A stretch of 64,000 nucleotides of DNA from an uncultured Pseudomonadota bacterium (GCA_963720835.1 CAVRHC010000007.1:109177-173176), one strand, 5' to 3'. Counted from the stretch's first letter, positions 33,228 to 64,000 are shown. Made by a program: numbers and translations. The notes: generated from the sequence alone by a model not told the origin.

Positions 33228-33230
33228 CCG

Positions 33231-35329: not shown

Positions 35330-35334
35330 CGCCC

Positions 35335-45756: not shown

Positions 45757-45878
45757 GTAGACGCCATCCGAGTTCCGGCGACAGAAGTCGGCGATGTATG
45801 GACACGATGGGTCGCTGTAGAGGCCGCGCGCCAAAGGCTGCGCGCGACCAATCTTCGGTATTGCAGGACGAGTCTCAG

Positions 45879-46910: not shown

Positions 46911-46973
46911 CGTTTTCCTCCCAGAAAGCTTTTTAAATTTTTTCGGGCTCGCCGCAGCGTCTCCGCCACAACA

Positions 46974-46990
46974 GTACCGTACGGTACGGT
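46974..46990. promoter_or_regulatory. candidate TetR operator upstream of the MBL-hydrolase operon
   Basis: GTACCGTACGGTAC is a perfect 14-bp palindrome, extended to TACGGTACGGT, 64-80 nt upstream of the 46910 start. It shares words with the site at 40396-40417. Confidence 0.5.
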
Positions 46991-47474
46991 ATTTTAATCT
47001 TTGGACAAAGGCAAACGGAATAGCTGACACGGCCAAACCGCCAGAAATAGCCTCATACGTGCAAATTTCGGCCGTCCCGACGAGAAGCGGCAAGCTGGGC
47101 GGCGTTCGTGCCAGCAAGAGATCGTGATCGGCCGGTAACGTCCTGCGCGTGCCGCAAATGTATCCGGCTGCCGGTTGATCGAAAATCAAGCAAACCTGTC
47201 GTGGGATTAAAGGTATTTGTAGACTTGTCAGTTGGACGGTCGTCGATCCGCTCCGGTCCCCGAAATCGCTGGAGGCAGAAACTTTTTGCCTTGCAGCCGA
47301 GCGAAAGACAGGATGCATCGATATCGCTCACCATTGAGCAAGCCGGACACATTCATTGCCGTCCGTTGGGCAGGCTGCATCACCAATATGTCCGGAATTG
47401 ATCTACGACAGGGACAACTACCTGCCCATATGCAACCCGCATTGGGTCAGTCCGGTTAGTTTGGATTGATCCTG

Positions 47475-48365
47475 TTAAAAATTTGGCAATGGCAGCCCGG
47501 CCTGCATAGACCCAGCGCGCAGTGTATTAAGTAGCAAACAGGCAATTGTCATCGGGCCTACACCGCCCGGCACCGGCGTGATGGCACCGGCGACTTGCAA
47601 TGCGTCCGCATATGCCACGTCACCGACGATGCGCGGCTTGCCGCCTTCGCCCGGCACGCGGTTAATACCGACATCAATTACCGTCGCTCCGCGCTTGATC
47701 CAGTCGCCGCGCACCATCTCAGGTTTGCCGATAGCAGCGACCAGCAAGTCGGCGCGCCGGCACACTGCCGGCAGATCGTGCGTTTTGGAATGGCAAATGG
47801 TCACCGTCGCGTTCTCGGCTAGCAGCAACTGCGCGACCGGCTTGCCGACGATGTTGGAGCGGCCGATCACCACCGCCTCCATGCCCGCGAGCGACTCATG
47901 AACGGTCTTCGCCAACAGCACGCACCCCAGCGGCGTACACGGCACCAACGCGGGCAATCCGCTGGCGAGACGACCGACGTTGAGCGGATGAAAGCCGTCC
48001 ACGTCCTTGGCGGGATCAATGGCGGCGATCACCTTCTGTGGATCGATCTGCTTGGGAAGCGGCAACTGCACCAGAATGCCACTTACGGAGGTGTCGGCAT
48101 TGAGCGCGCGGATGAGTTCGAGTAATTCGCCTTCGCTGGTGTTCGCCGGCCGCTTGTGGTCGAACGCTCGCATGCCGGCTTCCGCCACCGCCTTTGATTT
48201 AGTGCGCACGTAAACGCTGCTCGCCGGATCCTCGCCGACAAGCACCACGGCGATACCCGGCGTAAGTCCGTTAGCGCTTTTAAGTCGGGCGACCTCGCCG
48301 GCAATTTTTTTGCGCAGCTCCGCTGCGACTGCTTTACCGTCGATGGTAACGGAGGTGATGGTCAT
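47475..48365 (-). CDS. folD: bifunctional methylenetetrahydrofolate dehydrogenase/methenyltetrahydrofolate cyclohydrolase
   Basis: 296 aa: [50 protein letters not shown]. Confidence 0.95.
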
Positions 48366-49165
48366 GTTTTAGTGAGCGCCGGCTAATTGACGATGCAATA
48401 GACACGCGCCTTTTCCATCTTCCACGTGCAGGAGTCGCGGTCGTAGGGTGTAAGTGCGAAGCAGTGTCAATGATTGTGCAACTATCACGACCAAAATAGC
48501 GGTGACTGTCACGTAAGCTTGCACGATTGCTGGCGGCACGGTTGCCGAAAGCTCAGCGAACGGATTTGTGATGAACATGAGAGTCCCCCAATTTCGGGCC
48601 AGTTCTTAATCGTTGTCGAAATAAAAACCGGGACCGAATGGAAGCGACAAATAGCACAAGTAAAAATCTTTAAGCCATTGACTTGAATCTATCGCGCAAT
48701 AGACGGTGCAAAACAAACGACGTCATCGCAAAAAGCGAGTGCCGCCGACAGTGGCGCTTGCCGCATAGGCTCAAACTGAACAGCCCGATTCGGCCGCGTC
48801 TCGAGTCATCACCACCATCGTGGGCGAATTGCTCGAGATTCCCAACAAAGTTGTCGCCTTTCGGGGGGTATATGGCAGCCATCCCGCAACTCGCAGCCTT
48901 CGCAAATAAAGCGTGACAGATTTCGTTGCGTCGCGATGGCAGTCGCAAACTGTGACATCAACTTACGGAGCATGCTCATGTCAGCCTCTCGTTCGTCAGT
49001 TCCATCGAAATATAAATAATTTCAATCCAAGAACATTGTTGGGCTATTGAGGTAAATCAAAATATGCAGACCAGGCAGCAGAGGATTTGCTATAGCGAAA
49101 AAGATCGTTTTGTTCTATTTTCTTCAATAAGTACTGGGCTTTAGGCGCCTCGCCAGAGAACGACC

Positions 49166-49790
49166 ATGGATATCTTCAAGCCGGTGAAAATCGAAGGCGC
49201 GCGCGTCATGCTTGAGCCGTTGTCGCTGCGGCATCTTGATGATCTCGCGGCTGCCGGCGCCGACGGATCCATCTGGCATTGGCTGCCGAGCGCGCACCAT
49301 TTGCCGGGCTCAATGGCCGAATTCATTGAGTCTGCTTTGGCCGCATATGAGCGGCGCTCCGCCCTGCCTTTCGCGACGATCGATCGCGTGTCGAAAAAAG
49401 CTGTTGGCTCGAACTCGCTTCCACCATATCGAAATCGAACATCGACGCCTTGAAATCGGGGTGACCTGGATTGGAACTGCTTTCCAACGGTCATATGTCA
49501 ACACTGAAACTAAGTTCCTGCAGCTTTGGTACTGTTTTGAAATCCTGAATTGTCGACGGGTCGAGTTCAAAGCGGATGTCGACAACAAAAAATCAATCAA
49601 CGCGATATCGCGGCTCGGCGCCACGAAAGAGGGGCTTTTTCGAAAGCATATGCTGTATGCGGACGGTCGAAACCGCGATAATGTTTATTTTTCAATAATT
49701 GACGACGAGTGGCCCGCTATCCAGGCGCAGCTTCAGGCGAAGCTTAGCTACGCAGTCTCCCCTCGCGTCATCGAAGTGAAGGCGGCATGA
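49166..49790 (+). pseudogene. GNAT (RimJ/RimL-like) N-acetyltransferase with a 1-nt frameshift at about 49412
   Basis: ORF 49166-49453 gives the N-terminal part (...ATIDRVSKKAVGS). The +1 frame continues with TRFHHIEIEHRRLEIGVTWIGTAFQRSYVNTE...RVEFKADVDNKKSINAISRLGATKEGLFRKH from 49413. Confidence 0.7.
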
Positions 49791-49803: not shown

Positions 49804-50694
49804 TCAATCCTTGCTGACACGTTTTGCGTAAGCGTCAATAAAATCAGCGGCAGCTTTGCTTCCTCGAGCAAAAGATTTCATCGCTTCCTCATGGAGCAAA
49901 TTCAACGCTTGCATTTTTATTGCATTCGCTTCGTCGCTCTCGGTGATGTTCTCAGCGTTGCGCGGGCGAGGTAAATTGACTTCAATGACAGAACGAACAC
50001 GCGTTGGAATATTTGACATGATCAAGATGCGATCGGCCAAAAAAATTGCTTCGTCGATGTCTGTCGTGACGAAAAACGTCGTGCGCCTGAATTCGTTATA
50101 GAGGTTTGCGTAGTATTCCTGCATCAGCCGTTTGGTCATGGCATCCAGACCGCGGAACGGCTCGTCCAGGATCATAATCGCCGGTTTGTTAATCATGGAG
50201 CGAGCAAGTTCAGCGCGACGTTGCATGCCTCCGGAAAGCTGCGACGGATACTTTTTACGGAATGCTGCGAGCCCCACCTTCTGCAGCAACGCTTCGGCGA
50301 AATCGCGCATCTCCGGCGTGTCTTCGCCGCGTGCACGCGGCCCGTACATGATGTTGTCGTAAGTGGTCATCCAGGGGAAAAGTGCGGTCTCCTGGAAACA
50401 GACCAAACGATCGACCCCCGGACCTGTTACCGGCTTGTCGTCGAAAATAACCGTCCCGCTATTGGGACGTTCGAAACCCGCCAAAAGCCGTATCAGCGTG
50501 CTTTTGCCGCATCCGGACGGTCCGATCATAACGGTCAATTTGCTGCGTTCGATCGTAAAGCTGCAGTTCTGCACGACATGCTTAGTAAAAACGTCGGTGC
50601 CGTAAGACTTGCTGACGTTCTTGACAACGATTTCGCTGCCGAAGGCGGTAGACGTGCCGGCTTGAGCTGACAAGTTGTGGGTCATTTCCTGCAT
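49804..50694 (-). CDS. ABC transporter ATP-binding protein (NitT/TauT family), second ATPase of the operon
   Basis: Walker A GPSGCGKST, signature LSGGMQRR, Walker B ILDEPF. Confidence 0.9.
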   Translation of the reverse strand: MQEMTHNLSAQAGTSTAFGSEIVVKNVSKSYGTDVFTKHVVQNCSFTIERSKLTVMIGPSGCGKSTLIRLLAGFERPNSGTVIFDDKPVTGPGVDRLVCFQETALFPWMTTYDNIMYGPRARGEDTPEMRDFAEALLQKVGLAAFRKKYPSQLSGGMQRRAELARSMINKPAIMILDEPFRGLDAMTKRLMQEYYANLYNEFRRTTFFVTTDIDEAIFLADRILIMSNIPTRVRSVIEVNLPRPRNAENITESDEANAIKMQALNLLHEEAMKSFARGSKAAADFIDAYAKRVSKD

Positions 50695-50711
50695 ATTTTT
50701 TTCTCGCGTTT

Positions 50712-51560
50712 TTACCCTTCAGCGAGCCATGGAGTCAGAAATTCCCCTAACCTGCGTATGGCGGCGCTCGAAATATAGCCAGCGATGCCGATGCTGATCA
50801 TGCCGGCGACGATTTGGGTATAGGAACCGCCGACGTATGAATTCCAGATGAAGAAGCCGAGGCCGCCGCCTGCCGCTCCGCCCATCGAACCGGCGCTTCC
50901 GCCGCCGGAAATCATTTCCGCCGCGACCACCACCGCCCATGTAATGCCGATGCCGACGGTCGCGCCGACGACGATGGACGGCAAAGTTCCCGGCAGAATA
51001 ATGCGCCGAAAAATGTCCCATGTGGACGAGCCCATAGATCGCGCCGCCTGGAAGTAACGGACATCGATGGCCCGCGCGCCGCCGATCACGTTGATGACGA
51101 TCGTGAAAAATGCTCCGAGGAACGTAACAAAGGCGATTGAGAGCTCCTGCGTTGGCCAAAAAATGATGGCTGCCGGCACCCAGGCGAGGGGAGGTATCGG
51201 GCGCAACACTTCGAAGACGGGAAAAGTGATGCCGTAGAACGTACGGCTGACAGCCATGGCAAGGCCAAGCGGGATACCTATGATCATCGCCGCGATGAAG
51301 CCTTCAAAGACCCGCAAGGTGCTAAGATAGGCGCTTTGCCAAAAGCTGGGCTCTTGAATGAGTTTGAGCATCTCCAACAAGACGGCACTCGGCGCGGGGA
51401 TCTGCGATACCCAGGGAAAGGCAATTCCGAACCACGCCTCCGATCGCGATCCGATTTCCCATAAAATGAAAAATACGATGATGGCGACCACACCGCGCCA
51501 GACTGCCTCATCCGTGATAAGGCTTGCGGCCTTCATAAAGATTGCCTCGCTCCGATTCAT
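50712..51560 (-). CDS. msmH: ABC transporter permease (NitT/TauT family)
   Basis: BPD_transp_1-type permease (six TM-like segments; EAA-like loop AARSMGSSTWDIFRRIILPG). The symbol is assigned only from gene order relative to the published msmEFGH operon. Confidence 0.75.
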   Translation of the reverse strand: MNRSEAIFMKAASLITDEAVWRGVVAIIVFFILWEIGSRSEAWFGIAFPWVSQIPAPSAVLLEMLKLIQEPSFWQSAYLSTLRVFEGFIAAMIIGIPLGLAMAVSRTFYGITFPVFEVLRPIPPLAWVPAAIIFWPTQELSIAFVTFLGAFFTIVINVIGGARAIDVRYFQAARSMGSSTWDIFRRIILPGTLPSIVVGATVGIGITWAVVVAAEMISGGGSAGSMGGAAGGGLGFFIWNSYVGGSYTQIVAGMISIGIAGYISSAAIRRLGEFLTPWLAEG

Positions 51561-51562
51561 GA

Positions 51563-52477
51563 TCAGCGTTCCTTTTCACCGGCGTCGAAGGCCTTGATCG
51601 CTTCCTCATGCACGGCCGCGGATGTTTCCTCCATGAAGGCGCGAAAGCGTTTGGTCGTGAGCACGCTATAGTCGCGAGGATGGGGAATATCGATGTCGAG
51701 TATCTTCTTCGGTCGACACGGTCTTGTCGTCATAATTACCACGCGGTGTCCGAGAAAAATGGCCTCTTCGAGATCATGCGTGATGAAGAAAATCGTGACG
51801 CGATTCTTATAAAAAATCTCAAGCAACGCCTCATGCATGACCGATTTCGTCAGCGAATCGAGTGCGCGATATGGCTCGTCGAGCAATAGGATTTTTGGGT
51901 CGTTCATGAGCGCGCGGACAATCTCGACGCGACGGCGAACGCCAGACGAAATTTCACCAGGATAGCTATCTGCAATGCCACGTAACCCGGCATCGGCCAT
52001 CATGCTGTGTGCTTTTTCATAAGCTTCCGCACGCGACATCGTCCCCTGCATTACCGGCCCGAATGCCACGTTATCGAGGTTAGTCTTCCACGGAAACAAC
52101 GCACCGTTTTGAAAGACCACGATACGGTCGGGACCCGGCTCCGCTTTGAGTTTTCCCGGTCCACACAACATTTCGTCGTCGAGATAAATGCTGCCGGAAC
52201 TGAGACTGTGAAAACCGGCAATGGCATTGAGAAGCGTCGTTTTTCCGCAACCCGAGGGGCCGACGACGACGGTGATCTCCCCGGCTGGAACGTCGAAGGT
52301 GCAATGGTCGACGGCCAAAACACCGGCGCCATGTACGCCGTATGTCTTGACGGCATCGATGATGCGTACGCCGCCTTTGTGCGAATTTGTTGAACGTTCC
52401 CTCTGCGATGGCGCAGAGGGAGCTTCCATTGTTGTTTGCACTATCGTTCTCCCAGCGCCAGCTCTCGGGTCCGCCAC
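51563..52477 (-). CDS. msmG: ABC transporter ATP-binding protein (NitT/TauT family)
   Basis: Walker A GPSGCGKTT, signature ISSGVRRR, Walker B LLDEPY. The start may be ATG 52429 (MEAPSAP). Confidence 0.8.
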   Translation of the reverse strand: MADPRAGAGRTIVQTTMEAPSAPSQRERSTNSHKGGVRIIDAVKTYGVHGAGVLAVDHCTFDVPAGEITVVVGPSGCGKTTLLNAIAGFHSLSSGSIYLDDEMLCGPGKLKAEPGPDRIVVFQNGALFPWKTNLDNVAFGPVMQGTMSRAEAYEKAHSMMADAGLRGIADSYPGEISSGVRRRVEIVRALMNDPKILLLDEPYRALDSLTKSVMHEALLEIFYKNRVTIFFITHDLEEAIFLGHRVVIMTTRPCRPKKILDIDIPHPRDYSVLTTKRFRAFMEETSAAVHEEAIKAFDAGEKER

Positions 52478-53379
52478 TGCATCATATAGTCACCGAGCAG
52501 TCGAATGGCGGCGCTCGTAACGTAGCCGACGATTCCCAACGTCACCATGCCGATAATAATCGTGGGATACCGCACCATGGTGTAAGATGTGTTGATTACG
52601 TAACCCAACCCGTATTGTCCCGATACCATTTCACCGGCGACCAACGAAAACCACGCAACGCCGACTGAAATCTGCAAACCGGTGAAGATAAAGGGCAATG
52701 CTCCCGGCGCGATGATATGCCGAAACACTTGCCAGCGTTTCGCACCGAGACAACTTGCCGCACGGGTATAAGACACATCGATCGATTCGACACCCAACAT
52801 CGTGTTGAGGGCAGTCGCATAGAACGACGCAAGAAACGTCAAAAAGATAACCGGCGTTTCGGATCCACGAAACATGACAATCGCTAGTGGGACCCACGCT
52901 AGTGGCGGTATGGGCCGCAGCAGTTCGAAGACCGGGAAAACGTATTGTTTGAAGCGTGGCGACCAGCCGAGAAACAGCCCGAGCGGTACACCAATTCCGG
53001 TCGCCAGAAAGAAGGCAATCGCGATACGCCGGGTGCTGACCCAGATGTGCAGGTAATATTCCGGTACGAAGATCGACAATCCATAGACGGGATCGCGACT
53101 CAACCACTCTGTAAAGACCTGTGTCGGCCCCGGCATTTCGGCAAAGCGCGGCAGTTTCCACACCTCTACCGAAAAATACCAAAAGCCGAGAAAGCAAGCG
53201 AGGCCGATCAACATCAGATATGGCCGCGGACTTTGCAGCCACAGCGACGTCCGGTGCATTGCCAATGCCCAGGAGGTCATGCTTCGGGCATTGTCGCCAA
53301 TCACATCTTGAGGGGAGTCTATCGTGCGAATGTCGCTCAGTTCAGTTTCGGTCATTGCTGCGCCTTTGTGAGGCTCCAT
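52441..53379 (-). CDS. msmF: ABC transporter permease (NitT/TauT family)
   Basis: Polytopic permease with the EAA-like loop AASCLGAKRWQVFRHIIAPG. The symbol is assigned from gene order only. Confidence 0.75.
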   Translation of the reverse strand: MEPHKGAAMTETELSDIRTIDSPQDVIGDNARSMTSWALAMHRTSLWLQSPRPYLMLIGLACFLGFWYFSVEVWKLPRFAEMPGPTQVFTEWLSRDPVYGLSIFVPEYYLHIWVSTRRIAIAFFLATGIGVPLGLFLGWSPRFKQYVFPVFELLRPIPPLAWVPLAIVMFRGSETPVIFLTFLASFYATALNTMLGVESIDVSYTRAASCLGAKRWQVFRHIIAPGALPFIFTGLQISVGVAWFSLVAGEMVSGQYGLGYVINTSYTMVRYPTIIIGMVTLGIVGYVTSAAIRLLGDYMMQWRTRELALGER

Positions 53380-53423
53380 GCCTTTTTAAGGCATGGAGCC
53401 GCGTTGACGTCGTCGTGCGTACG

Positions 53424-54611
53424 TCACTTGCCGGTGTAAGCGGAGTCCGGCAGCGCTTTAACTTCGCCCACAGGCGCCTTCAAATTGCGGGCTTTCAGAA
53501 TGTCCTCGGTCAGATTCGACATAACCGCCTCGGGACGAATTTCGGCCTTGATGCTCTTGATCTCGAGAAGGAATGTCGAGGCCTTGTGCACAAGGTCCAT
53601 TACCTGCGGCGTGAAAGTATACGGCAACGTGATACGAATATCGGTGCCTCCTTCCGATTTGGGCGTCTGACCATAAGCGGATGCCCACAGCGCCTTTTCC
53701 GGGAAGCCGGTGGTCTGCGATGCCGCCATTTTCGCGACCTCCATCGCATGCTTGGAGTCGGCGAAATATAGTTCGGCATCAAGCTCGGCTTCGAGCCAGC
53801 CCTTCACGACATCTGGGCGCTGCTTAATAAGAGCCTCCGGCATGACCAGGAAGGCGCCATCGTTTTCGTTGACCGATGCACCCGTCGCGACCTTGCGTGC
53901 GAGTTTGTCGTGAACCAGGCGTGAAGCCGTCGGCTCCCAAATAACGGCGGCGTCTAGTTTTTTCGCGCGGAAGCCGCTCGTGATCACTTCGATGCTTTGG
54001 TTTAGATATTCGGCCGGCTTGATGTTGAAGCGCTTGAACACGGCCCGCGCAAAACGATCGGAACAAGCACCCTTCGGCACCGCCACGTGCTTGCCGTCCA
54101 TCCACTTAATTGCTTCTTCCGGCGATTTGAACTTGGGCGCATCGGTGCGAACGAGGAAGTTATTGCACTGATCCTGACCCAGGCCGACAGCCGCCACCAT
54201 TCGGACGTCGCGCACTTCGGCGTGGCTGGTCGATACGATCGCAGGCATGTCACCGACGTAACCAACATCCACTTTGCCGGCGAGCATGCCGTTGACAATG
54301 ATTGCGCCCTGCAAGCCAATCTGGAATTCGACTTTTGACCCCTTCGGGAGATATTTTTCGTAGAATTTCTTGTCGCGCATAACGACGCCCGACCACGATT
54401 CCGTATAGTAGGGCTGATAGCCAATAACCAAGTTGATTGCTTCACCGGGCTTTCCGTAGTCCTTGACTGCCGCTGCGGAAGCCGGCGAAGACGTCATCGC
54501 AAAGACGGCGAACCCGGCAGCCGCAACAGCTAGAGATTTGGCGGCGACTGAAAATCGGTTGACGCCATGCTGACGTAGGCCGCGCGGCTCTTTCCCTGTG
54601 TCCAAGTGCAT
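53424..54611 (-). CDS. msmE: periplasmic substrate-binding protein (NMT1/SsuA/TauA-like) of the sulfonate-type ABC importer
   Basis: Signal peptide (AVAAAGFAVFAMTSSPASAAA) and strong RBS GGGAGGA. It is divergent from the msmA-like gene, as reported for Methylosulfonomonas msmEFGH/msmABCD. Confidence 0.8.
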   Translation of the reverse strand: MHLDTGKEPRGLRQHGVNRFSVAAKSLAVAAAGFAVFAMTSSPASAAAVKDYGKPGEAINLVIGYQPYYTESWSGVVMRDKKFYEKYLPKGSKVEFQIGLQGAIIVNGMLAGKVDVGYVGDMPAIVSTSHAEVRDVRMVAAVGLGQDQCNNFLVRTDAPKFKSPEEAIKWMDGKHVAVPKGACSDRFARAVFKRFNIKPAEYLNQSIEVITSGFRAKKLDAAVIWEPTASRLVHDKLARKVATGASVNENDGAFLVMPEALIKQRPDVVKGWLEAELDAELYFADSKHAMEVAKMAASQTTGFPEKALWASAYGQTPKSEGGTDIRITLPYTFTPQVMDLVHKASTFLLEIKSIKAEIRPEAVMSNLTEDILKARNLKAPVGEVKALPDSAYTGK

Positions 54612-55078: not shown

Positions 55079-56329
55079 GTGGCAGCAAAGAATCATCGCG
55101 AATGGGTCGCGGAACCCGGCCTAAAGCCGTCAGAATGGGTCGATAGTCGCATTTATTCCGACCCGGAGATTTTCGAGGAAGAGCTCGAGAAGATCTTTAA
55201 GAAGAGTTGGATTCCAGTTTGTCATGAGTCCGAATTATCGAAGCCCTACGATTTCCGCACGATGTCGATCGCGCGTGAGCCGATCGTCGTCTGCCGCGGA
55301 CCGGACAATCAAGTCCGCGCCTTCCTGAACGTCTGTCCGCATCGGGGCATGATCATCGAGCGTCGACCGTCCGGGAGTTTTCTCGAAGGCCAGCCGTCAG
55401 GAAATCCGAAGCGGATGACCTGCATGTTCCATGCTTGGCAATACGACATGCGCGGCAATTGCGTTTACATCAGCCGCGAAAAGGAAGGTTTCCAAGAGCG
55501 CCTGTGCAAGGAGAACGTCGGTTTGCGGCGCTTGCGCTGTGAAGTGAAATTCGGTGGATTTGTCTGGGTCAGTCTCGAGGACAACCCGTCCGTTTCCCTT
55601 GAAGACTGGGGCGCAGAGGCTTTTGCTTGCCTGCGCAAGACTCTCGATGCTGAGCCGCTTGAGGTGTTTCACTATCACAAGGCGATTGTGAATGCTAACT
55701 ACAAGCTTTGGCACGATACAAACTGTGAATTTTACCACGACTTCATGCACTACCATAATCGCGTCACTGGCTTTAACGACGCTTACTTCGCGCGGAAGAA
55801 CGACGCCTTCGATCATGGCCACATTGTCGTCGGAACGTTTGAAGTGAACTACGAAAACTACGAAGGCGCCGAGAGTCGCGCAGAGCTTTCGTTCCCGTAC
55901 CTGCCGCCGAACCAGTGGTACATGATCGACCTTTTCCCGGGCATGAACTTCAACCTGCGTGGTTCCGCACTTCGGTGCGACATCGTGACGCCTTTAGGTC
56001 CGGATAAGGTGATGATCGAGTTCCGCGGGCTAGGCTTGAAGCGGGACACCGCTGAGGAGCGCGAGACGCGCATCAATCATCACAATTCAATATGGGGCCC
56101 ATTCGGCCGCAATTTGCACGAAGACCTGATTGGCGTTCAGGGGCAGGGCACCACGATGCTCACCGGCTCAGAACCGCGGCATATCCTGCATGGTCGCCAT
56201 GAGAACCAGACGATTTATGACGAAAATGGCATGCGGCACTACTACGATGAGTGGGGTCGCTGGATGAATTGGCTGCCGAGTAACCCCGAGAAGCCGTTCT
56301 CGGAGCGGATGTCGGTCGCCGCGGAATAG
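55079..56329 (+). CDS. msmA: methanesulfonate monooxygenase hydroxylase large subunit (Rieske oxygenase alpha)
   Basis: The Rieske motif is CPH (res 86-88) ... CMFH (res 115-118), with 26 residues between the His and the next Cys. This is the unusual CXH-X26-CXXH spacing reported for MsmA. There is also a mononuclear-iron region NCEFYHDFMHYH. GTG start with GGAGGG RBS. Confidence 0.85.
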   Translation: MAAKNHREWVAEPGLKPSEWVDSRIYSDPEIFEEELEKIFKKSWIPVCHESELSKPYDFRTMSIAREPIVVCRGPDNQVRAFLNVCPHRGMIIERRPSGSFLEGQPSGNPKRMTCMFHAWQYDMRGNCVYISREKEGFQERLCKENVGLRRLRCEVKFGGFVWVSLEDNPSVSLEDWGAEAFACLRKTLDAEPLEVFHYHKAIVNANYKLWHDTNCEFYHDFMHYHNRVTGFNDAYFARKNDAFDHGHIVVGTFEVNYENYEGAESRAELSFPYLPPNQWYMIDLFPGMNFNLRGSALRCDIVTPLGPDKVMIEFRGLGLKRDTAEERETRINHHNSIWGPFGRNLHEDLIGVQGQGTTMLTGSEPRHILHGRHENQTIYDENGMRHYYDEWGRWMNWLPSNPEKPFSERMSVAAE

Positions 56330-56447
56330 GCAGCGGAGGAGAAAATTTGTAAGTCTCGCGCGCGCTTTTGCAGGTCATAGGGGCTGCAATCGCGCGCGCC
56401 AATTCAGCGCCGCATTGCGCCTCAATGCTAAAAAAGGCGATTAGACC

Positions 56448-56930
56448 GTGGAACCTCAGGCTCTAGTTCGTGATGCGATTTATCGATCAACAATTCTGCT
56501 CGACAAGCAGGATTGGAATAGCTGGCTCGACCAGTGCGACGCAGAATTCCAATATGCGATACGCGCCTGGAGCCCCGAAATCAGCAAGGACATGACTTAT
56601 CTCTCATTGGACCGCAATGGTCTTGAAAATTTGGTCAACCTTTTGCCGAAGCACAACACAGATCATTCACCCCTGACGCGGCACACGTCAGTATATACCG
56701 TGGAGGTCGACGATAACGCCAATCGCGCCAATGCGGTCAGTTCGGTGATTGTTTATCAAAATCTTCTGGACGGTATCAATTCGCATATTGATGCCGGCGA
56801 GAGCCGTCTTTTCCTGGTCGGCAAATACATCGACAGCTTTAAGATCGACTCCGGCAAAGCGAAGTTTCTCAGCCGCGAGGTACGAATCGAAAACCGACGA
56901 TTGGACAAGGGTTCGCATTGGCCTATATGA
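56448..56930 (+). CDS. msmB: methanesulfonate monooxygenase hydroxylase small (beta) subunit, NTF2-like
   Basis: 160-aa ring-hydroxylating-beta/SnoaL_4-like protein (DKQDWNSWLDQCDAEFQY). It sits between the alpha subunit and the ferredoxin. A GTG start is forced by an in-frame TAG at 56442. Confidence 0.75.
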   Translation: MEPQALVRDAIYRSTILLDKQDWNSWLDQCDAEFQYAIRAWSPEISKDMTYLSLDRNGLENLVNLLPKHNTDHSPLTRHTSVYTVEVDDNANRANAVSSVIVYQNLLDGINSHIDAGESRLFLVGKYIDSFKIDSGKAKFLSREVRIENRRLDKGSHWPI

Positions 56931-57000
56931 CGAACGAGCCGTTTTTACGATCGGTGCTGGGGTGAGGCGCGGTGCCAAGAACAATACGACGAAGCCAAGA

Positions 57001-57369
57001 ATGACATGGAAACGCATCTGCGAGGCGGGAGACGTTGCTGAGAATTCCGTCAAGAAATTCGACGTCGGCGGGATCCCGATATTGCTGGTGAATTACGGCG
57101 CCGGCTACCGCGCAATTCCCCCTGTTTGCCCGCATATGGAAGAGCCTCTGGACAAATCGGCTGTCGTCGCTAGTTGTGTGCTGACTTGCACCAAGCACCT
57201 GTGGTCTTGGGACATGGCGACGCTCGACATGAAGGGTGAAACGGAAAAGCCCCTATTGACGTATGAAGTCAAACAGGAAAATGGCTCCATCTTCGCAAAT
57301 ATCGAACATGAATTGACTTACGAGTTTGAATCCGAGGACGGCGAAGACGACGACGATTTCTTCAAGTGA
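57001..57369 (+). CDS. msmC: Rieske-type [2Fe-2S] ferredoxin component
   Basis: CPHMEEPL ... CTKHLWSW Rieske motif and a very acidic C-terminus ([13 protein letters not shown]). The start is taken at ATG 57001. Confidence 0.8.
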
Positions 57370-57385
57370 GTCGATTGCCAGTGCC

Positions 57386-58417
57386 ATGAAAATCACGGTC
57401 CAGAGCAAGAGCGGGGACGTGACATTTCAATGCGGTGAAGGCGAGACGATTCTTCATGCCGGACTTCGTCAAGGTTTGCGCCTTCCCTATGAATGCGCCA
57501 CCGGTACCTGTGGAACTTGCCGCGCGCGCGTCATGAACGGCGAGATCGCAGTCCGATGGAAAACTGCTCCGGGTGGCGCGCGCCTTAAGCCTGAAAAAGG
57601 CGATGTGTTGATGTGCCAAACGCGGGCCCGCTCGGACTGCGTGCTCCGGGTGCCGTCTGAGGTAGGCGCTTCATCGATCCCCTGTCCAGCCTCGCGCCGC
57701 GGTGTCATTCGCGGTATTCGCGGCCTAACTCACGACGTTACGCATTTCGATATCGAACTGTCCGAACCAATCAGTTATGAGGCGGGCCAGTTTGTTGTGA
57801 TTGAAGCAAAAGATTTGGAAGGCGGCCGTGCATACTCGATGGTCAATTTCGACCAGGCGACCGATAGAATTGGGCTTGTGCTCAAACGCAAGCCAGGCGG
57901 CGGTTTCAGCAATTGGCTGGGCGACGAACGGGAAAACGTAGAAGTCGAGGTCTTCGGTCCACTTGGACGGGCGGTGTTCCGACCGCAGGAAGAAAAGCAT
58001 ATCATATGCATCGCCGGTGGCTCGGGCATTGCCGGAATGATGTCGATCCTCGCCCATGCCGTTGACCTTGACTACTTCCGCGACCATAAGGGTTCCGTTT
58101 TCTTCGGTGTTCGCACGCTCGCCGACACTTTCTACCTTGATCAGTTGTCCAGTTACGTCGATGCGTCACATGGTAATCTTGACGTAACCGTTGCGCTTTC
58201 CGATGAAGTCGCTGCTGCGGCAATTCATAACGAATTTTCCAAGTTGAAACTCGCGAGCGGTTTCGTTCACGAAGTTGCGATCAGAGCAATGAACGGCAGA
58301 TACGACAACGCGATCGCGTTTGTGGCGGGACCGCCCCCGATGGTTGATGCCACCATCCGCAGCCTGATCGTCGGCGGCATGGCAACAAAAGATATTCGAT
58401 ATGACAAGTTCGGTTGA
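57386..58417 (+). CDS. msmD: ferredoxin-NAD(P)H reductase component (plant-type 2Fe-2S + FNR-like FAD/NAD domains)
   Basis: [13 protein letters not shown] cluster motif, RAYSMVN flavin motif, [12 protein letters not shown] motif. The start is taken at ATG 57386. Confidence 0.8.
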
Positions 58418-59138
58418 CGCACTTTCGACGCTCAAGCCAAAGGCCGCCAATTGGCAACCGATATCATCGGCGGATGATGATGCATTGGCCCGTGCCCGGC
58501 GTGAAACCCTAAATATCGTGCAGTGGCTCGCGCGCATCGCAAACAGTTACGTTATGGCGCCACCACAGGAGCGGACAATACTGACATTTCTGCCTCAGGA
58601 TGTTGCTCTGGTGACGAAAACCTTCGAGGGCAATAAGTCGCTCCAAATGCGACTGCCGACGTTGGAAATGCAATTTCTCGAGCATGGTCGGCCGGTACCG
58701 CACATTTTCAATCCTGAGGAACACTCGCCGGCGAAGGCCGAAGCTTGGTTCTTAGTCGAGCTTCTTCATCGAGGTATCGATCGCGAAAAGTTTTCCAAGG
58801 ATCTGCCTTATGAGATTCCGAATTTGCTGAGCGGTGACGCTGAAGATTACTCGCCAAAATCTTGCAAAACGGGATTGGGGCAATTGACAGTTTGGTTTCA
58901 AAATGCCGCTGTGGCGTTCGCTACGGCGGGTCATGGCGAGACTTTCGAGTGCTCACCACAGACGCTTGATCTGACGGCCGCAAAAAGTGGATTTTCACTG
59001 GGCAGGGATGACAGCGTCGAGCCGTATTTTTACAAAACCGTGCAGGGTAAACAGTCTGTGCTGAAGGCGTCTCAGTTCGCGGGAGAACGAGATCCACTGG
59101 CGATGATCGTGGCTTTTCTCAACGCGCCCGCGAGTTGA
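58401..59138 (+). CDS. hypothetical protein, no family recognised, translationally coupled to msmD
   Basis: 245-aa ORF whose ATG lies 17 nt before the msmD stop. It has no TM segments or signal peptide and no motif I can assign. Confidence 0.5.
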
Positions 59139-60147
59139 CCGCGGAAATCCGCCGTTTTTCCGGAACTTTCGCAGCGTGCCTTTCGGCCGGCTTTTCGGCG
59201 GGAGGCGATTCGTCGTTGACCGCTTGTTCGCCGGCGAGACGTTTGCGCAGCTCACCGGACTTGTTGAGCTGCTGAACGACCGTGACGAATGCCTTGGCCA
59301 TCGGCAATACGATGTCGCCTTCTCCCCAGAACAAGCCAACGTCTTGGCTCGCCACAGGATCGACCAACGCGAGTGCGCGCGTGCCTCGGTGCAGTCCTGG
59401 GGCGTGAGCGAAATGCGACGGTATGATCGTGCAAAGCTCTGTGAATTGAACCTGAAACATGAGATGCAGGATCAATTCCAACTCAACGTGGGCTTCGGGC
59501 GCACATCCAACACTTTTGAAGACTTGATCGACGAAACGGCGTTCGTGCATTGACGGACGCAACATCGCCAGCGGAAGCTCGGCGGCTTCTTTCCATGTGA
59601 TGTTCGTACGATGCCGGAATTCCGGCTTGTCAGGGACAAGCAGACTCAATTGCTCAGTATAAATCGGCAATATGTTCTTGCGGCCGAGTTCTGCCTTGTC
59701 GAGGTAGGTCAGGGCGACATCGAGCGCGAATTCGTTGAGCCCCAGTTTCATCGCGTCGTTACCGATAAATTGTACGTCCACATGCACTGCGGGGTGTTTT
59801 TCTCGAAAAGGCTCAAGCATGGAAGGCAGGACCGGGGACATCGACGGCATGGCGCCCAAACGCAAACGGCCGGTCAGTTCCTTGCGCATCATCTCCACTT
59901 CTTTGCGCATGGCATCGCAGTAAGCCAGCACGCCGCGCGACCAATTCGCAACGCGTTCGCCCTCAGCGGTCAGTCCGTGAAATCGCTGGCCGCGGCCGCG
60001 AAGAAAAATCGGCACACCAAGTTCGAGTTCAAGCTGCTTGATGCCGCTGGACAGGCTAGGCTGAGTGACGTTGCAGCGCTGGGCGGCACGACCAAAGTGT
60101 CGTTCTTCGGTAACGGCGATCAAGTATCGGAATTGGCGAATGAACAT
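59119..60147 (-). CDS. LysR family transcriptional regulator
   Basis: MFIRQFRYLIAVTEERHFGRAAQRCNVTQPSLSSGIKQLE HTH and a LysR substrate-binding domain, with an extra C-terminal tail of about 45 aa. ATG 60147 is preceded by AGGTGA. Confidence 0.9.
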   Translation of the reverse strand: MFIRQFRYLIAVTEERHFGRAAQRCNVTQPSLSSGIKQLELELGVPIFLRGRGQRFHGLTAEGERVANWSRGVLAYCDAMRKEVEMMRKELTGRLRLGAMPSMSPVLPSMLEPFREKHPAVHVDVQFIGNDAMKLGLNEFALDVALTYLDKAELGRKNILPIYTEQLSLLVPDKPEFRHRTNITWKEAAELPLAMLRPSMHERRFVDQVFKSVGCAPEAHVELELILHLMFQVQFTELCTIIPSHFAHAPGLHRGTRALALVDPVASQDVGLFWGEGDIVLPMAKAFVTVVQQLNKSGELRKRLAGEQAVNDESPPAEKPAERHAAKVPEKRRISAVNSRAR

Positions 60148-60278
60148 GACCGTCACCTGCTTATCAGTTTATACGATAGTACTATTCGAAAATAGATACC
60201 ATCAAATGATTTCTATGATTCAACAGATCGTCCTTTTGGTGCATCGCGGTAAATCGAGTTGCGGCGCAGCATTGTTCG

Positions 60279-61061
60279 GTGCGGTCACGAGGTATCGCCG
60301 TGCCGATTTTTGAGTTGGGCTTGATTGCCATCCTAGGCCTCGTTTCCGGTTTGATGATCGGATGCATCGGGATTGGCGGAGTGATCTTGGTGCCTTCGCT
60401 TGTATTCCTCGCGGACGTTCCAATTCACGTCAGCATCCCGGCTGCGATGATGGCCTACATCCTCTCTGGCTTGGTCGCGACTACGGTCTTTGCGCGCAAG
60501 AAATCGATCGAGTGGCCGATGGCGATTTGGTTGTGTTCCGGCGCAATACCAACCGCTTTCATCGGCGCTTGGACGGTTAACGTTTTGAACCCGCGCATTC
60601 TGGAGGTCTGCATCGGATTTCTCACATTGCTGGCTGGGCTGAATGCACTGACGACACAGGCCGGGGGTGGCGCGGCTGCGCGTGCGGTTGTGCCAAAGAC
60701 AACGCTGGGCGTGGTTGGCGCTATCGCCGGATTTCTGTCGTCCCTGAGCGGAACCGGCGGGCCGTTGGTGCTAGTGCCTATCTTGATTACGATGAGTGTG
60801 CCGGTACTGACCGCGGTGGGCTTAAGCCAGGCAATCCAGCTCCCCATCGCTACAGCGGCGACATTTGGCAATGCGTTGTATGGCACGCTCAATTTGGAAC
60901 TTGGTGGTGTGCTTGCTCTTGCTCTGACCTTCGGATCATGGGGGGGAGCGCGACTCGCGCATGTGATGCCACGGACAATTTTGCGAAAAATCGTATCGGT
61001 CGTGCTGGTGGTGGTCGGCTTGTTTATTTTGGGCAACATTCTTTTCCGGCTGATGCGGTGA
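60279..61061 (+). CDS. TauE/SafE (DUF81) family sulfite-exporter-like membrane protein
   Basis: Polytopic protein with two repeated halves and a GIGGVILVPSL-type motif. The start may be GTG 60300 (preceded by GAGG). Confidence 0.8.
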   Translation: MRSRGIAVPIFELGLIAILGLVSGLMIGCIGIGGVILVPSLVFLADVPIHVSIPAAMMAYILSGLVATTVFARKKSIEWPMAIWLCSGAIPTAFIGAWTVNVLNPRILEVCIGFLTLLAGLNALTTQAGGGAAARAVVPKTTLGVVGAIAGFLSSLSGTGGPLVLVPILITMSVPVLTAVGLSQAIQLPIATAATFGNALYGTLNLELGGVLALALTFGSWGGARLAHVMPRTILRKIVSVVLVVVGLFILGNILFRLMR

Positions 61062-61068
61062 GGACAAC

Positions 61069-62073
61069 ATGGCGTTCGATGCCTCTGCCCTGACGCCGGA
61101 TTTCGGCGATCCGGCTGGCGAAGCGGAGGCATGCCGTGCCGATAGCGCACTCTTCGATTTCTCCTTTCTCGAGCGGGCTAGAATTTCAGGAAAAGGCGCG
61201 CTTGACTTTGTGTCGACATTCGCCGGGCGGCCGCTGATGCAAATGCGGCGAAACGAGATTGCTTATGCCGTGCGGGTTGATGTGGCAGGCCGCGCATTGT
61301 CGGATTTGACGATCTGGCGCATCGGCGACGAGACATTTGAAATCATGAGTGGCCGGCATCAAGACATTGCCGATCTGCACGGGTCGGCGGGTGCGGATAC
61401 CTTTGTCGATGACATAACAGAGGAAAGTGTTGTTTTTTCAGTGCAAGGCCCCAATGCGTTGAATTCCCTGCGTAAAATCGGTGACGTCAACGCCATCAAG
61501 CAGTTGCGTTACTTCAACTTTGGAAATGCGTGCTTGGGCGATGTCCCATGCACTATTGGTCGGCTGGGGTATACTGGAGAACCTGGCTTTGAGATCATCG
61601 CGAACAAAGCCAACGCTAAGGATCTTTGGCAGCGTTTAGCCGAAAATGCGCGGCCGGCAGGCTTCATCGCGGCGGATATTCTGCGCATTGAAGCCGGTTT
61701 CGTTTTATTCGCAAACGAATTTCTCTTGCCAGTCTCGCCCGCAGAAGCTGGGCTCGGCAGGTTTCATCTTGACGCAAAGCCCGCAAACACAACGATCAGA
61801 CTCGTCTCATTTCGTGCCGAGGCTGACAATCTAAGTTTCCCCTGGCGTCCGACTTCAAAGCTATATCGTCCCACTGAATTGAATTCGATTGTCGTGACGT
61901 CTGCATGCGACAGCATTGTCGCGGGAAGTATTCTCGGACTTGGATATGTTCCTGATGGCCACGATAATGCTACGCCGTTGCGTGACCCGACCGAGGCATT
62001 TCGCAATATCCGTCCAACGGCAATGCCATTTTACGACACGAAAAAGCATCGGCCGCGTCAACCGTGGACTTGA
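61069..62073 (+). CDS. GcvT-family (aminomethyltransferase-fold) folate-binding protein
   Basis: SFLERARISGKGALDF, GYTGEPGFEI and ILRIEAGF motifs of the GCV_T fold. Confidence 0.8.
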   Translation: MAFDASALTPDFGDPAGEAEACRADSALFDFSFLERARISGKGALDFVSTFAGRPLMQMRRNEIAYAVRVDVAGRALSDLTIWRIGDETFEIMSGRHQDIADLHGSAGADTFVDDITEESVVFSVQGPNALNSLRKIGDVNAIKQLRYFNFGNACLGDVPCTIGRLGYTGEPGFEIIANKANAKDLWQRLAENARPAGFIAADILRIEAGFVLFANEFLLPVSPAEAGLGRFHLDAKPANTTIRLVSFRAEADNLSFPWRPTSKLYRPTELNSIVVTSACDSIVAGSILGLGYVPDGHDNATPLRDPTEAFRNIRPTAMPFYDTKKHRPRQPWT

Positions 62074-62264
62074 AACAAGGCGCCGGAACGTGGCGGTTCA
62101 TGATGATCCGGGCACTTTCATAGCCCTTGGCGAATATACGATAGCCGTTGATTATTTGACTGAAACGCTGACGAAGCGGCCCAATGTGGCCTGGTTTGGG
62201 CTAGCCGGGGATGCTCGGCTGCTTTCCCAAACGATGAATAGGTACAGCAACAAAGGACCGGGAC

Positions 62265-63173
62265 ATGGCCGATAAGCCGGCGAGGAAAAAAGTCACCATC
62301 AACACCCTCAATAGCAAAATGAAAAAGGGTGAACCCATTACTCAGTTGGCTGCGTACGACTATCGTACGGCTGTCGTTGCCGACCGCCTTGGCATGGATA
62401 TTCTTTGTGTCTCTGATACTGGCGGAATGATTTTGTTCGGGCATCAGAGCACGGTCTCGGTAAGTTTCGATGAAGTGATGATGATGGCAAAGGCCATCGA
62501 CCGCGGCTCCAAATACGGCCTGCGGATGGTTGATATGCCGTATTGGAGCTTTCATGTGTCGCCGGAGCAGGCGGTCGCCAACGCCGGTCGCTTTGTGCAC
62601 GAAGCAAATGCCGAAGTGATGAAATGCGAGGGCAACAAGTATCACGCGAAGAATATTGAAGCCATCGTCCGCGCCGGCATTCCGGTGCAAGGGCATATTG
62701 GCATCACGCCGATGCGAATGCCGCAACTTGGGGGGTTCGTCGCGCAAGGCAAGACAGCCAAACGCGCCAAGGAAATGGTGGAAGATGCCAAGGCGATGGT
62801 CGACGCCGGCTGTTTCTCGATCTTATGCGAAGTGACCACTTCAGAGGTTGCCGAGTATCTGGCAGAAACCTTGCCCGTGCCGGTGATCAGTCTCGGTGCA
62901 GGTAATTGCGCGCACGGCGTGCATATTATCTCCTCCGACCTCTTCCATCTCTGGGAAGAGCATGTTCCGCGTCACTCGCGCATCTACACCGACCTCATTC
63001 CAATCATGGAAGATGTCATCACGCGTTACATGAAAGACGTGGTGAATCGAGATTATCCGGCCGCGAAAGAGACGGTTTTCATGGCCCCTGAGGAATCCCT
63101 CGCGTTTGCACAGGAAATGAAATGGGACCGCAAGGTCGACGAATTGCGTTCATCTAGCAAGAAAACCGCTTGA
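62265..63173 (+). CDS. PanB-family 3-methyl-2-oxobutanoate hydroxymethyltransferase homolog
   Basis: SDTGGM, VDMPY, MKCEG and ILCEV align by eye with E. coli PanB Asp45, Asp84, Lys112 and Glu181 contexts. At 302 aa it has a longer C-terminus than I expect for PanB. Confidence 0.75.
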   Translation: MADKPARKKVTINTLNSKMKKGEPITQLAAYDYRTAVVADRLGMDILCVSDTGGMILFGHQSTVSVSFDEVMMMAKAIDRGSKYGLRMVDMPYWSFHVSPEQAVANAGRFVHEANAEVMKCEGNKYHAKNIEAIVRAGIPVQGHIGITPMRMPQLGGFVAQGKTAKRAKEMVEDAKAMVDAGCFSILCEVTTSEVAEYLAETLPVPVISLGAGNCAHGVHIISSDLFHLWEEHVPRHSRIYTDLIPIMEDVITRYMKDVVNRDYPAAKETVFMAPEESLAFAQEMKWDRKVDELRSSSKKTA

Positions 63174-63290: not shown

Positions 63291-64000
63291 ATGCCCGCCT
63301 CGCAACACCAAACGCCGAAGTCTGATATCGAGATTGCCCAGGCCGCCAAGATGCGGCCGATCATCGAACTCGCCAAGGAGAAGCTCGGTATCGCGGCGAA
63401 GGATCTCGAGCCTTACGGCCACTACAAGGCCAAGGTCTCGATGGATTACATCAAGTCGCTCGAGGGCAAGCCGAACGGCAAGATGATCCTGGTCACCGCG
63501 ATCACGCCGACGCCGGCGGGCGAGGGCAAGACCACAACGACCGTGGGCCTGACCGACGCGCTCAACTACATCGGCAAGAAGGCGATGCTGTGCCTGCGCG
63601 AAGCCTCGCTCGGCCCCTGCTTCGGCGTCAAAGGCGGCGCCGCCGGCGGCGGTTACGCCCAGGTCGTGCCGATGGAAGACATCAACCTGCACTTCACCGG
63701 CGACTTCCACGCCATCACCTCGGCGCACAATCTGCTCGCCGCGCTGATCGACAACCACATCTATTGGGGCAACGCGCTCGGCATCGACAGCCGCCGCGTC
63801 GCCTGGCGCCGCGTGATGGACATGAACGACCGCGCGCTGCGCGAAATCGTCTGCTCGCTCGGCGGCGTCGCCAACGGCTATCCGCGCGAGGCCGGCTTCG
63901 ACATTACCGTTGCTTCCGAGGTCATGGCGATCTTCTGCCTCGCCAAGAATCTCAACGACCTGCGCGAGCGGCTCGGCAACATCATCGTCGCCTATACGCG
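63291..64000 (+). CDS. fhs: formate--tetrahydrofolate ligase, 3' end cut by window edge
   Basis: My own translation from ATG 63291 gives [24 protein letters not shown]...[17 protein letters not shown]...[31 protein letters not shown]. It is open to the end of the window, and is absent from the ORF track because no stop is present. Confidence 0.95.

Follow-up and report, generated by a model that had tools for sequence, protein, structure and literature searches.

A distinct PanB paralogue as a conserved companion of methanesulfonate hydroxylation genes, with a possible role between hydroxylation and one-carbon folate metabolism

Introduction

Methanesulfonate (MSA) is a major atmospheric oxidation product of dimethylsulfide, and bacteria have been described as degrading it in one enzymatic step, catalysed by MsmABCD, with a 'spontaneous' release of formaldehyde and sulfite to follow. 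Here, we analyse the genes located downstream of msmABCD in a stretch of 64,000 nucleotides from an uncultured Pseudomonadota bacterium (GCA_963720835.1 CAVRHC010000007.1:109177-173176), hereafter the window, in which the region under study (60,279-63,173) encodes a TauE/SafE membrane protein, a GcvT-fold protein and a homologue of PanB, next to a divergent lysR gene. The new result is that this PanB paralogue stands apart from other PanBs, is conserved to an exceptional degree and accompanies methanesulfonate hydroxylation systems almost universally.

The closest described locus is that of 'Candidatus Filomicrobium marinum' strain Y (KM879220), for which Table 1 of Henriques & De Marco (2015; PMC4433239) lists a LysR regulator, a TauE/SafE protein, a 'glycine cleavage T protein' and a '3-methyl-2-oxobutanoate hydroxymethyltransferase', then SoxC/SoxD. 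The same four genes thus occur in the same order near msmEFGH and msmABCD. In strain Y, however, the block is located beyond msmH, approximately 12 kb from msmA, and is followed by a SoxC/SoxD-type sulfite dehydrogenase, whereas in the window it lies directly downstream of msmABCD and of a conserved open reading frame (ORF), orf245. Henriques & De Marco connected these genes, in a remark, with sulfite metabolism and 'reactions linked to methylotrophic pathways', without proposing a specific role, and this paper apart, our literature search retrieved none tying methanesulfonate to this PanB homologue. An earlier note on this sequence considered that a C1 transfer onto a 2-oxoacid by the PanB paralogue, or the reverse reaction, is not a described part of MSA metabolism; the gene arrangement itself is not undescribed, since it was already listed in 2015, as annotation only.

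Each protein also has better-known relatives. Canonical PanB (EC 2.1.2.11; Escherichia coli 1M3U, Mycobacterium tuberculosis 1OY0) belongs to the same fold family as the PanB-like protein, its chemistry interconverts methylene-tetrahydrofolate (methylene-THF) or formaldehyde and a hydroxymethyl group, and its Mg2+ ligands, Lys112, His136 and Glu181 are identical in the PanB-like protein; the latter differs by its low identity, by clade-invariant replacements, by the lack of a pan-gene context and by a distribution that follows msm rather than species. The folate domains of dimethylglycine oxidase (DMGO, 1PJ5), dimethylglycine dehydrogenase (DMGDH, 4PAB), sarcosine oxidase and trimethylamine N-oxide (TMAO) demethylase (9Q59), which capture the one-carbon (C1) unit as methylene-THF, resemble the GcvT-like protein in sequence and fold, although the latter is a free-standing protein of 334 residues, unfused to an oxidising enzyme. 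TauE/SafE (TSUP) proteins of the taurine and sulfoacetaldehyde pathways share PF01925 with the window TauE and are likewise encoded next to a sulfite-releasing desulfonation pathway. Finally, Fae of tetrahydromethanopterin-dependent methylotrophy offers a functional analogy only, its dedicated task being to accelerate the condensation of formaldehyde with a C1 carrier; its fold is unrelated, its carrier different, and no homology is implied.

The PanB paralogue is better conserved than the monooxygenase itself, travels with msm across classes and accompanies an unrelated actinobacterial oxygenase. These observations suggest that an unrecognised enzyme is dedicated to the passage from hydroxylation to C1-folate metabolism. 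If true, this would extend a well-studied enzyme family by a new reaction, improve the set of markers for MSA degraders in metagenomes and suggest a native substrate for an orphan group of amidohydrolase-related dinuclear oxygenases (AROs). If these genes were instead ordinary folate housekeeping, only the conserved neighbourhood already listed in 2015 would be left.

The methanesulfonate island of the window

The msmABCD genes (55079-58417, plus strand) encode a putative methanesulfonate monooxygenase with Rieske, Ring_hydroxyl_A, Ring_hydroxyl_B and Fer2/FAD/NAD domains, and comprise msmA (55079-56329), msmB (56448-56930), msmC (approx. 57001-57369) and msmD (57326-58417). Read from its sequence, MsmA carries a CXH-X26-CXXH motif, that is, the 26-residue Rieske spacer which is the hallmark of MsmA (PMC4433239), and it is 80-94% identical to the MsmA of 80 genomes. 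With this motif, msmBCD and a divergent msmEFGH-type transporter, the locus belongs to the msm gene islands. The G+C content of the block at approximately 48.4-63.2 kb, which is part of the last 16 kb of the window, is 50-57%, versus 62.6% for the backbone.

Downstream of msm, and as predicted by the earlier note, three ORFs on the plus strand encode the TauE/SafE (TSUP) protein, a putative sulfite exporter (60279-61061; PF01925, 131.5 bits for a cutoff of 32.6), the GcvT-fold folate-binding protein (61069-62073; GCV_T PF01571, 157.6 bits), which starts 7 bp past tauE, and the PanB-like protein (62265-63173; Pantoate_transf PF02548, 274.5 bits). The TauE match is full-length, residues 16-249 covering profile positions 1-236 of 237. 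The lysR gene (59119-60156, minus strand, likely ATG at 60147; HTH_1 and LysR_substrate domains) is divergent from tauE and convergent with orf245. The flanking position of two folate genes was also recovered: folD (47475-48365, minus strand) encodes a bifunctional methylene-THF dehydrogenase/cyclohydrolase (Pfam match; NCBIfam PRK14188, 460 bits versus a cutoff of 396), and the 5' part of fhs (formate-tetrahydrofolate ligase; 63291-64000, plus strand) runs off the window, its translation being 84.6% identical to a full-length FTHFS. A folD gene also adjoins msmH in 29 related loci, with only approximately 45% identity to that of the window. On metagenome contigs encoding an identical PanB-like protein, the next gene after fhs encodes a SorA-type sulfite dehydrogenase; the functional cluster therefore extends past the end of the window.

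A distinct subfamily of PanB homologues

The PanB-like protein belongs to the PanB family and fold, as indicated by its Pfam score and by matches to PanB structures at E=1e-42 to 1e-35. It is 28-40% identical to canonical PanBs (approximately 35-40% to those of solved structure), and reaches one of the two NCBIfam equivalogs as a borderline case (TIGR00222 panB, 208.3 versus a cutoff of 207.55) while remaining below the other (PRK00311, 247.5 versus 272). Among 1.84 billion representatives of 50%-identity clusters, a single full-length one (77% identical) stood for the clade; the next full-length relatives were 45% identical and canonical PanBs at most 41%. To any PanB outside the clade, identity is at most 48%. 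Within the clade, identity is at least 68% over Alphaproteobacteria, Gammaproteobacteria and Actinobacteria, whereas a canonical alphaproteobacterial PanB is approximately 39% identical to that of E. coli and approximately 33% to the PanB-like protein. Judged from these comparisons, the protein falls into a separate subfamily of ketopantoate hydroxymethyltransferase homologues, one that is linked to msm.

The active site was compared in an alignment of 107 clade members and 71 canonical PanBs. Residues D51, D90, K120, E122, H144 and E189, equivalent to D45, D84, K112, E114, H136 and E181 of E. coli, are conserved in 100% of the 107 clade sequences, so that the catalytic Asp/Asp/Lys/Glu set noticed earlier is invariant. 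At sites that are 79-97% conserved in canonical PanBs, the clade carries the replacements G44S, S46T, Y90F, G116N, Q142M, G201S, D209H, Q211V and G220H (E. coli numbering), all of them invariant in the clade except D209H (83%), G220H (97%) and S46T (99%); at positions 46, 90, 142, 209 and 211, the residue replaced is a polar one. The active site of PanB is formed by motifs at the C-terminal ends of barrel strands (PMC7770189), and it is in these motifs that the replaced residues sit. Such a pattern is that of a paralogue with a conserved catalytic core and, as far as can be read from the alignment, altered substrate recognition.

Canonical PanBs of the same bacterial family, found with a Rhodopseudomonas-like probe (98% identical to R. 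palustris PanB), are 87-99% identical (all but one at least 88%) across the 80 Bradyrhizobium-type genomes returned by a scan with a soil-type sequence, and the two that were looked up sit in an nnrU-panB, housekeeping context. The PanB-like gene is found with msm genes instead, and its identity across phyla departs from vertical inheritance. Neither panC nor panE is found nearby, and the 64 kb window holds no second PanB.

Two PanB-like genes were observed approximately 17 kb apart on one contig (CAVZFU010000005.1; loci L034, L136 and L141), each encoding a protein 93% identical to that of the window; one is located beside fhs and folD, upstream of msmH, and the other downstream of a GcvT-like gene.

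Linkage to msm across genomes

Our collection contains one genome per species (185,579 species' genomes). Eighty of the 234 MsmA loci matched were analysed, and a reverse search from a divergent PanB-like representative retrieved 266 PanB-like loci in the same collection, nearly all of them beside msm genes. The block formed by lysR, tauE, gcvT-like and panB-like genes beside msmABCD is conserved in other genomes, as the earlier note had called for checking: with all arrangements counted, 45 of the 80 msmA loci carry the PanB-like gene, and 43 of these 45 also carry tauE. The order msmABCD-orf245 then lysR, tauE, gcvT-like, panB-like is found in approximately 40 soil Xanthobacteraceae/Pseudolabrys-type genomes, and other orders of the same genes in Hyphomicrobium and further lineages. 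In Gammaproteobacteria (sponge-associated and others), the panB-like gene precedes msmA by approximately 55 bp in the same orientation, and in some Rhodospirillales the order is tauE, panB-like, folD.

Linkage was counted, with no correction for phylogeny, over the 50 PanB-like loci flanked on each side by 6 kb or more ('well-flanked' loci). An msm-type transporter or an MsmA or ARO-type oxygenase is located within 10 kb in 46 of the 50, a LysR gene occurs, placed as in the window, in 42, a GcvT-like gene in 35, a TauE gene in 34 and a SorA gene in 26. This arrangement is beyond chance. Across 45 comparable loci, the PanB-like protein is the best-conserved protein of the island in every case (45/45), with a median identity of 91.7%, ahead of MsmA (88.0%), TauE (63.8%) and the GcvT-like protein (53.2%).

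The earlier note treated the GcvT-like and PanB-like proteins as a pair, a view that we do not retain: the PanB-like gene is tied to msm more tightly than the GcvT-like gene, which is absent from many PanB-like loci. The order there is (lysR) tauE, panB-like, folD (L095, L106) or lysR, panB-like, fhs (L090).

The genes that recur beside the PanB-like gene in relatives encode FolD, Fhs, SorA and cytochrome c, a second TauE, AprB/AprA and a ClC channel; the neighbourhood is thus consistently about sulfite and C1-folate. The cultured Bradyrhizobium sp. NP1 (L085, CP127385.1:1078589-1099629), whose MsmA is 87.7% identical to that of the window and which lies outside the 80-locus set, encodes successively msmEFGH, msmABCD, an ORF, LysR, TauE, the GcvT-like and PanB-like proteins, 5-formyl-THF cycloligase, MTHFR, SorA, cytochrome c, FolC and a transposase. 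These additional folate genes and the transposase suggest a mobile, folate-centred module. Among PLSDB plasmids, no member of the PanB-like clade was found, every match being below 60% identity.

A few PanB-like loci have no msm genes nearby (L099, L134, L140 and L169). In the gammaproteobacterial L169, the gene accompanies genes for TauE, a GcvT-type protein and Fhs (tblastn), with no oxygenase within 8 kb; two upstream ORFs resemble FdsA/FdsB-type formate dehydrogenase, as judged from their N-terminal sequences alone. In L134, it occurs with a GcvT-like gene (tblastn) and no msm or ARO genes in the flanks; N-terminal sequences alone liken neighbouring ORFs to MetF, an aldehyde dehydrogenase, a DAO-type oxidoreductase and a TctC/TctA-type transporter.

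A second oxygenase in Actinobacteria, and a possible substitute at other msm loci

In Actinobacteria (Amycolatopsis alkalitolerans, Pseudonocardiaceae, Solirubrobacteraceae and Acidimicrobiia), proteins 71-77% identical to the PanB-like protein are encoded with TauE, Fhs and FolD in the absence of MsmA. The place of MsmA is taken there by an Amidohydro_2 protein, encoded adjacent to a Rieske ferredoxin, and the major facilitator superfamily (MFS) transporter of these clusters is 60-66% identical to the one adjacent to msmA. The Amidohydro_2 protein is similar to the orphan ARO of structure 8SM9 (E=1e-114) and to the AROs SfbO (8SM6) and AibH2. AROs are dinuclear-metal monooxygenases served by Rieske ferredoxins, of which SfbO binds sulfate (Liu et al. 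2024; PMC10811679). In SfbO, Arg232 and Arg235 bind the sulfate; as support for a sulfonate substrate, these two residues were considered and set aside, since they are not conserved in the actinobacterial protein. The PanB-like gene is thus found beside an unrelated oxygenase too, which indicates that it follows the hydroxylation product rather than the MsmABCD complex. These clusters, of which the window holds none, may represent a second, unrelated C1-sulfonate monooxygenase system, and C1 sulfonates may be a candidate native substrate for orphan AROs.

In A. alkalitolerans (L175:5016-16471), and also in L172, L170 and L167, the genes observed encode the ARO, a Rieske ferredoxin, the msm-like MFS transporter, the PanB-like protein, a Rieske-DUF2231-Rieske membrane protein, TauE, LysR, Fhs and FolD.

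A different Amidohydro_2 gene (305 residues; closest structure BB4693, PDB 3IRS) is located beside msmABCD, often next to an MFS transporter, in loci L044, L047-L049, L053-L055, L057, L058, L060, L062, L066, L074 and L078-L080 (e.g. L049:6378-7298). It is confined to loci that carry neither the PanB-like nor the GcvT-like gene: in the 80 msmA loci, the PanB-like gene occurs in 45 and this gene in 16, with an overlap of 0 (Fisher p=1.5e-7, uncorrected for shared ancestry). This mutual exclusion fits either a non-homologous replacement or a difference between lineages in the C1 carrier.

The GcvT-like protein as a putative C1 acceptor

The GcvT-like protein remains below every GcvT equivalog cutoff (TIGR00528, 103.7 versus 235.85; PRK00389, 130.1 versus 300), and the C-terminal domain of TMAO demethylase is among its matches. 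Its AlphaFold2 (AF2) model (pLDDT 80.9) and its match to PF01571 indicate a three-domain T-protein fold with a folate-binding domain; Foldseek ranks T-protein 1WOS first (TM 0.80), with the folate domains of DMGDH, DMGO and sarcosine oxidase (SoxA) next, whereas YgfZ reaches only 0.61. Residue D79 aligns with the catalytic Asp (D97 of E. coli in mature numbering; D552 of DMGO) and is invariant in 33 homologues, as are the Glu of GYTGE and the Arg of LRxEAG. The protein lacks residues 3-20 of E. coli GcvT (approx. 18 N-terminal residues), and the N-terminus of GcvT is needed for H-protein binding. No gcvH or gcvP was found among ORFs of at least 150 amino acids at 44-64 kb, nor among the recurrent gene families of related loci. 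Because of these scores, the missing N-terminus and the lack of gcvH/gcvP nearby, the protein is best described as a free-standing, predicted folate-binding C1 acceptor and not as a glycine-cleavage enzyme. The C1 trap suggested in the earlier note is supported by comparison, with a full T-protein fold and the catalytic Asp kept.

A probable accessory module for both products of hydroxylation

On balance, we consider it probable that tauE, the gcvT-like and panB-like genes and the divergent lysR gene belong together as a conserved accessory module, which handles both products of MSA hydroxylation. In this model, which builds on the fold identities, the retained catalytic residues and the linkage, the TauE-type permease would move sulfite out of the cytoplasm; SorA and its cytochrome c, encoded in relatives and just past the end of the window, would oxidise it. 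The C1 unit, donated by free formaldehyde or by its bisulfite adduct, would be loaded onto tetrahydrofolate (THF) as 5,10-methylene-THF: the GcvT-like protein may do so in the manner of the folate domains found in DMGO and TMAO demethylase, and the PanB-like protein most likely runs its half-reaction from the hydroxymethyl group to THF. FolD and Fhs would then oxidise the methylene unit to formate, unless it enters the serine cycle, and LysR presumably controls the module.

The product-handling role proposed from the window sequence draws support from the linkage to msm and from the sulfite genes (SorA and cytochrome c, a second TauE, AprBA) and C1-folate genes (FolD, Fhs, MTHFR, 5-formyl-THF cycloligase, FolC) of the neighbourhood. 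Several observations nevertheless weigh against it. Two proteins both loading THF would look redundant. The G+C contents of folD (61.6%) and fhs (64.3%) are those of the backbone, and both could be housekeeping genes adjacent by chance in this lineage. Sulfite export by the TauE/SafE family rests largely on genomic inference, and the family includes importers. The PanB-like protein keeps the complete Mg2+/2-oxoacid and enolisation set, which suits the canonical direction with some 2-oxoacid at least equally. Finally, 16 msm loci (Methylobacterium, Methylocella, Hansschlegelia and others) carry neither gene, so that MSA use in general does not depend on the module.

As to the direction of the PanB-like reaction, the earlier note had left the choice between a transfer onto a 2-oxoacid and the reverse reaction. 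Context favours the reverse, with the PanB-like protein feeding C1 units into methylene-THF, over 2-oxoacid hydroxymethylation. Loci without a GcvT-like gene hold only consumers of methylene-THF unless the PanB-like protein makes it, and no enzyme able to process a hydroxymethylated 2-oxoacid is found among the recurrent neighbours of related loci, which supports the same direction.

The canonical direction is the main rival, if an improbable one: the GcvT-like protein would make methylene-THF from formaldehyde, and with this methylene-THF, or with free formaldehyde, the PanB-like protein would hydroxymethylate some 2-oxoacid distinct from 3-methyl-2-oxobutanoate, either to drain C1 units or to assimilate them. 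What sustains this rival is the intact enolisation machinery, since the Mg2+-binding, oxoacid-binding and enolisation residues are all invariant, and the adjacency of the two genes in 35 of the 50 well-flanked loci is in its favour. PanBs are described as accepting other 2-oxoacids and free formaldehyde (Sugantino et al. 2003, as related in PMC7770189), and the swapped residues could retune oxoacid specificity. However, neither a reductase nor an aminotransferase nor any other product-using gene recurs nearby, the PanB-like gene often stands directly beside folD or fhs without a GcvT-like gene, and it accompanies two unrelated oxygenases, each with TauE.

A more specific version of the module places hydroxymethanesulfonate (HMS), the formaldehyde-bisulfite adduct, at its centre. 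HMS would be the immediate product of methanesulfonate hydroxylation, released by the monooxygenase, and the PanB subfamily would be the missing Mg2+-dependent lyase/transferase that cleaves its C-S bond and transfers the hydroxymethyl group to THF. The sulfite so released would go to TauE and SorAB, with free formaldehyde being scavenged by the GcvT-like protein; the 3IRS-like Amidohydro_2 gene could be a non-homologous substitute for the same step, and the actinobacterial ARO clusters could encode a second, unrelated methanesulfonate monooxygenase. The pKa of the HMS hydroxyl is reportedly near 11.7. The adduct has a dissociation constant of approximately 2e-4 M and is cleaved, at 43 s-1, only from its alkoxide form (PMC6459274), and it is stabler than other aldehyde-S(IV) adducts (PMC11250035). 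Taken with that pKa, this cleavage rate would give HMS a half-life of minutes at pH 7.5, too slow for a growth substrate. We hold this proposal as tentative and rather unlikely as it stands. Our literature search retrieved no paper connecting HMS with MSA monooxygenase, and locus L169, with its PanB-like protein, TauE, GcvT-type protein and Fhs but no oxygenase, is compatible with the proposal without proving it.

It is still less probable that general C1/folate and sulfur housekeeping genes merely travel with the island with no dedicated role in MSA use, in which case TauE could equally import a sulfonate. The linkage is strongest in one family of soil Xanthobacteraceae metagenome-assembled genomes, where shared ancestry inflates counts, and the few PanB-like loci without nearby msm genes agree with such passengers. 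Yet the linkage recurs in different gene orders, classes and phyla, which inheritance alone hardly explains, and a conserved promoter-like element precedes the panB-like gene.

Least credible is an ordinary pantothenate enzyme, i.e. the housekeeping panB or an extra copy raising pantothenate/CoA supply on MSA: the protein does pass Pfam and, barely, TIGR00222, and a second panB was not shown in msm-bearing genomes, the scan having covered 80 Bradyrhizobium-type genomes with none of the 125 msm- or PanB-like-bearing assemblies among them, but the discrete clade, its identity across phyla, its rare and msm-bound distribution, its replaced residues, a context unlike nnrU-panB and the two copies on one contig are strong, although indirect, evidence against a housekeeping role.

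A conserved element upstream of the panB-like gene

A block of 60-70 bp is conserved, in alignment, within the otherwise variable spacer that precedes the panB-like gene. In the window, this candidate element (62118-62185, plus strand) has the layout TCATAGC..GCGAATATACGATAGCC..TTATTTGACT..CCCAAT and holds a TTGACT box; its core, ATTTGACT, is found in 39 of 46 loci. Rfam returned no match for it, either at the gathering threshold or at E<=1; a riboswitch was set aside on this ground, and the sequence of the block reads as a candidate regulated promoter or operator. Promoter and terminator scans gave counts not above those of shuffled sequence, and thus no evidence on operon structure.

The 10-mer TATACGATAG of the element is repeated in the lysR-tauE spacer (60170-60179) and was not found upstream of msmA. 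As a LysR box, it was not upheld: there are two copies only, and 12 of 100 shuffles reach two matches. The repeat may still be a LysR site, as a weak lead.

Other features of the window

Upstream of msmA, and divergent from it, an msmEFGH-type ABC importer (49804-54611, minus strand; NMT1_2 and SsuA_fam matches) comprises an SsuA-like binding protein (53424-54611), two permeases and two ATPases; it is kept, in the same divergent arrangement, in 44 loci. Between folD and msmH lies the frameshifted remnant of a GNAT (Acetyltransf_3) gene (approx. 48900-49790, plus strand), and an intact GNAT gene is found at a similar place, beside folD or msmH, in 13 related loci.

Downstream of msmD, orf245 (58401-59138, plus strand) overlaps the end of msmD by 17 bp with its start and the end of the convergent lysR gene by 20 bp with its own end. 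Its 52 homologues, also downstream of msmD, share 38 invariant positions, including the motif QWLARxANSY. Sequence and profile searches gave zero matches in Pfam, NCBIfam or PDB, and the single-sequence AF2 model was unusable (pLDDT 37).

Strongly negative AT-skew anomalies at 10-12 and 30-34 kb are accounted for by membrane-protein genes, namely ccmF (9732-11756) and a complex-I-like run (30274-36843, plus strand). The latter encodes two Proton_antipo_M proteins, an NADHdh protein and a fused Complex1_30kDa/49kDa protein, and resembles a group-4 hydrogenase or formate-hydrogenlyase-type complex. Just before folD, a pair of Lactamase_B_2 (metallo-beta-lactamase-fold) genes (44779-47318, minus strand) encodes proteins with signal-peptide-like N-termini.

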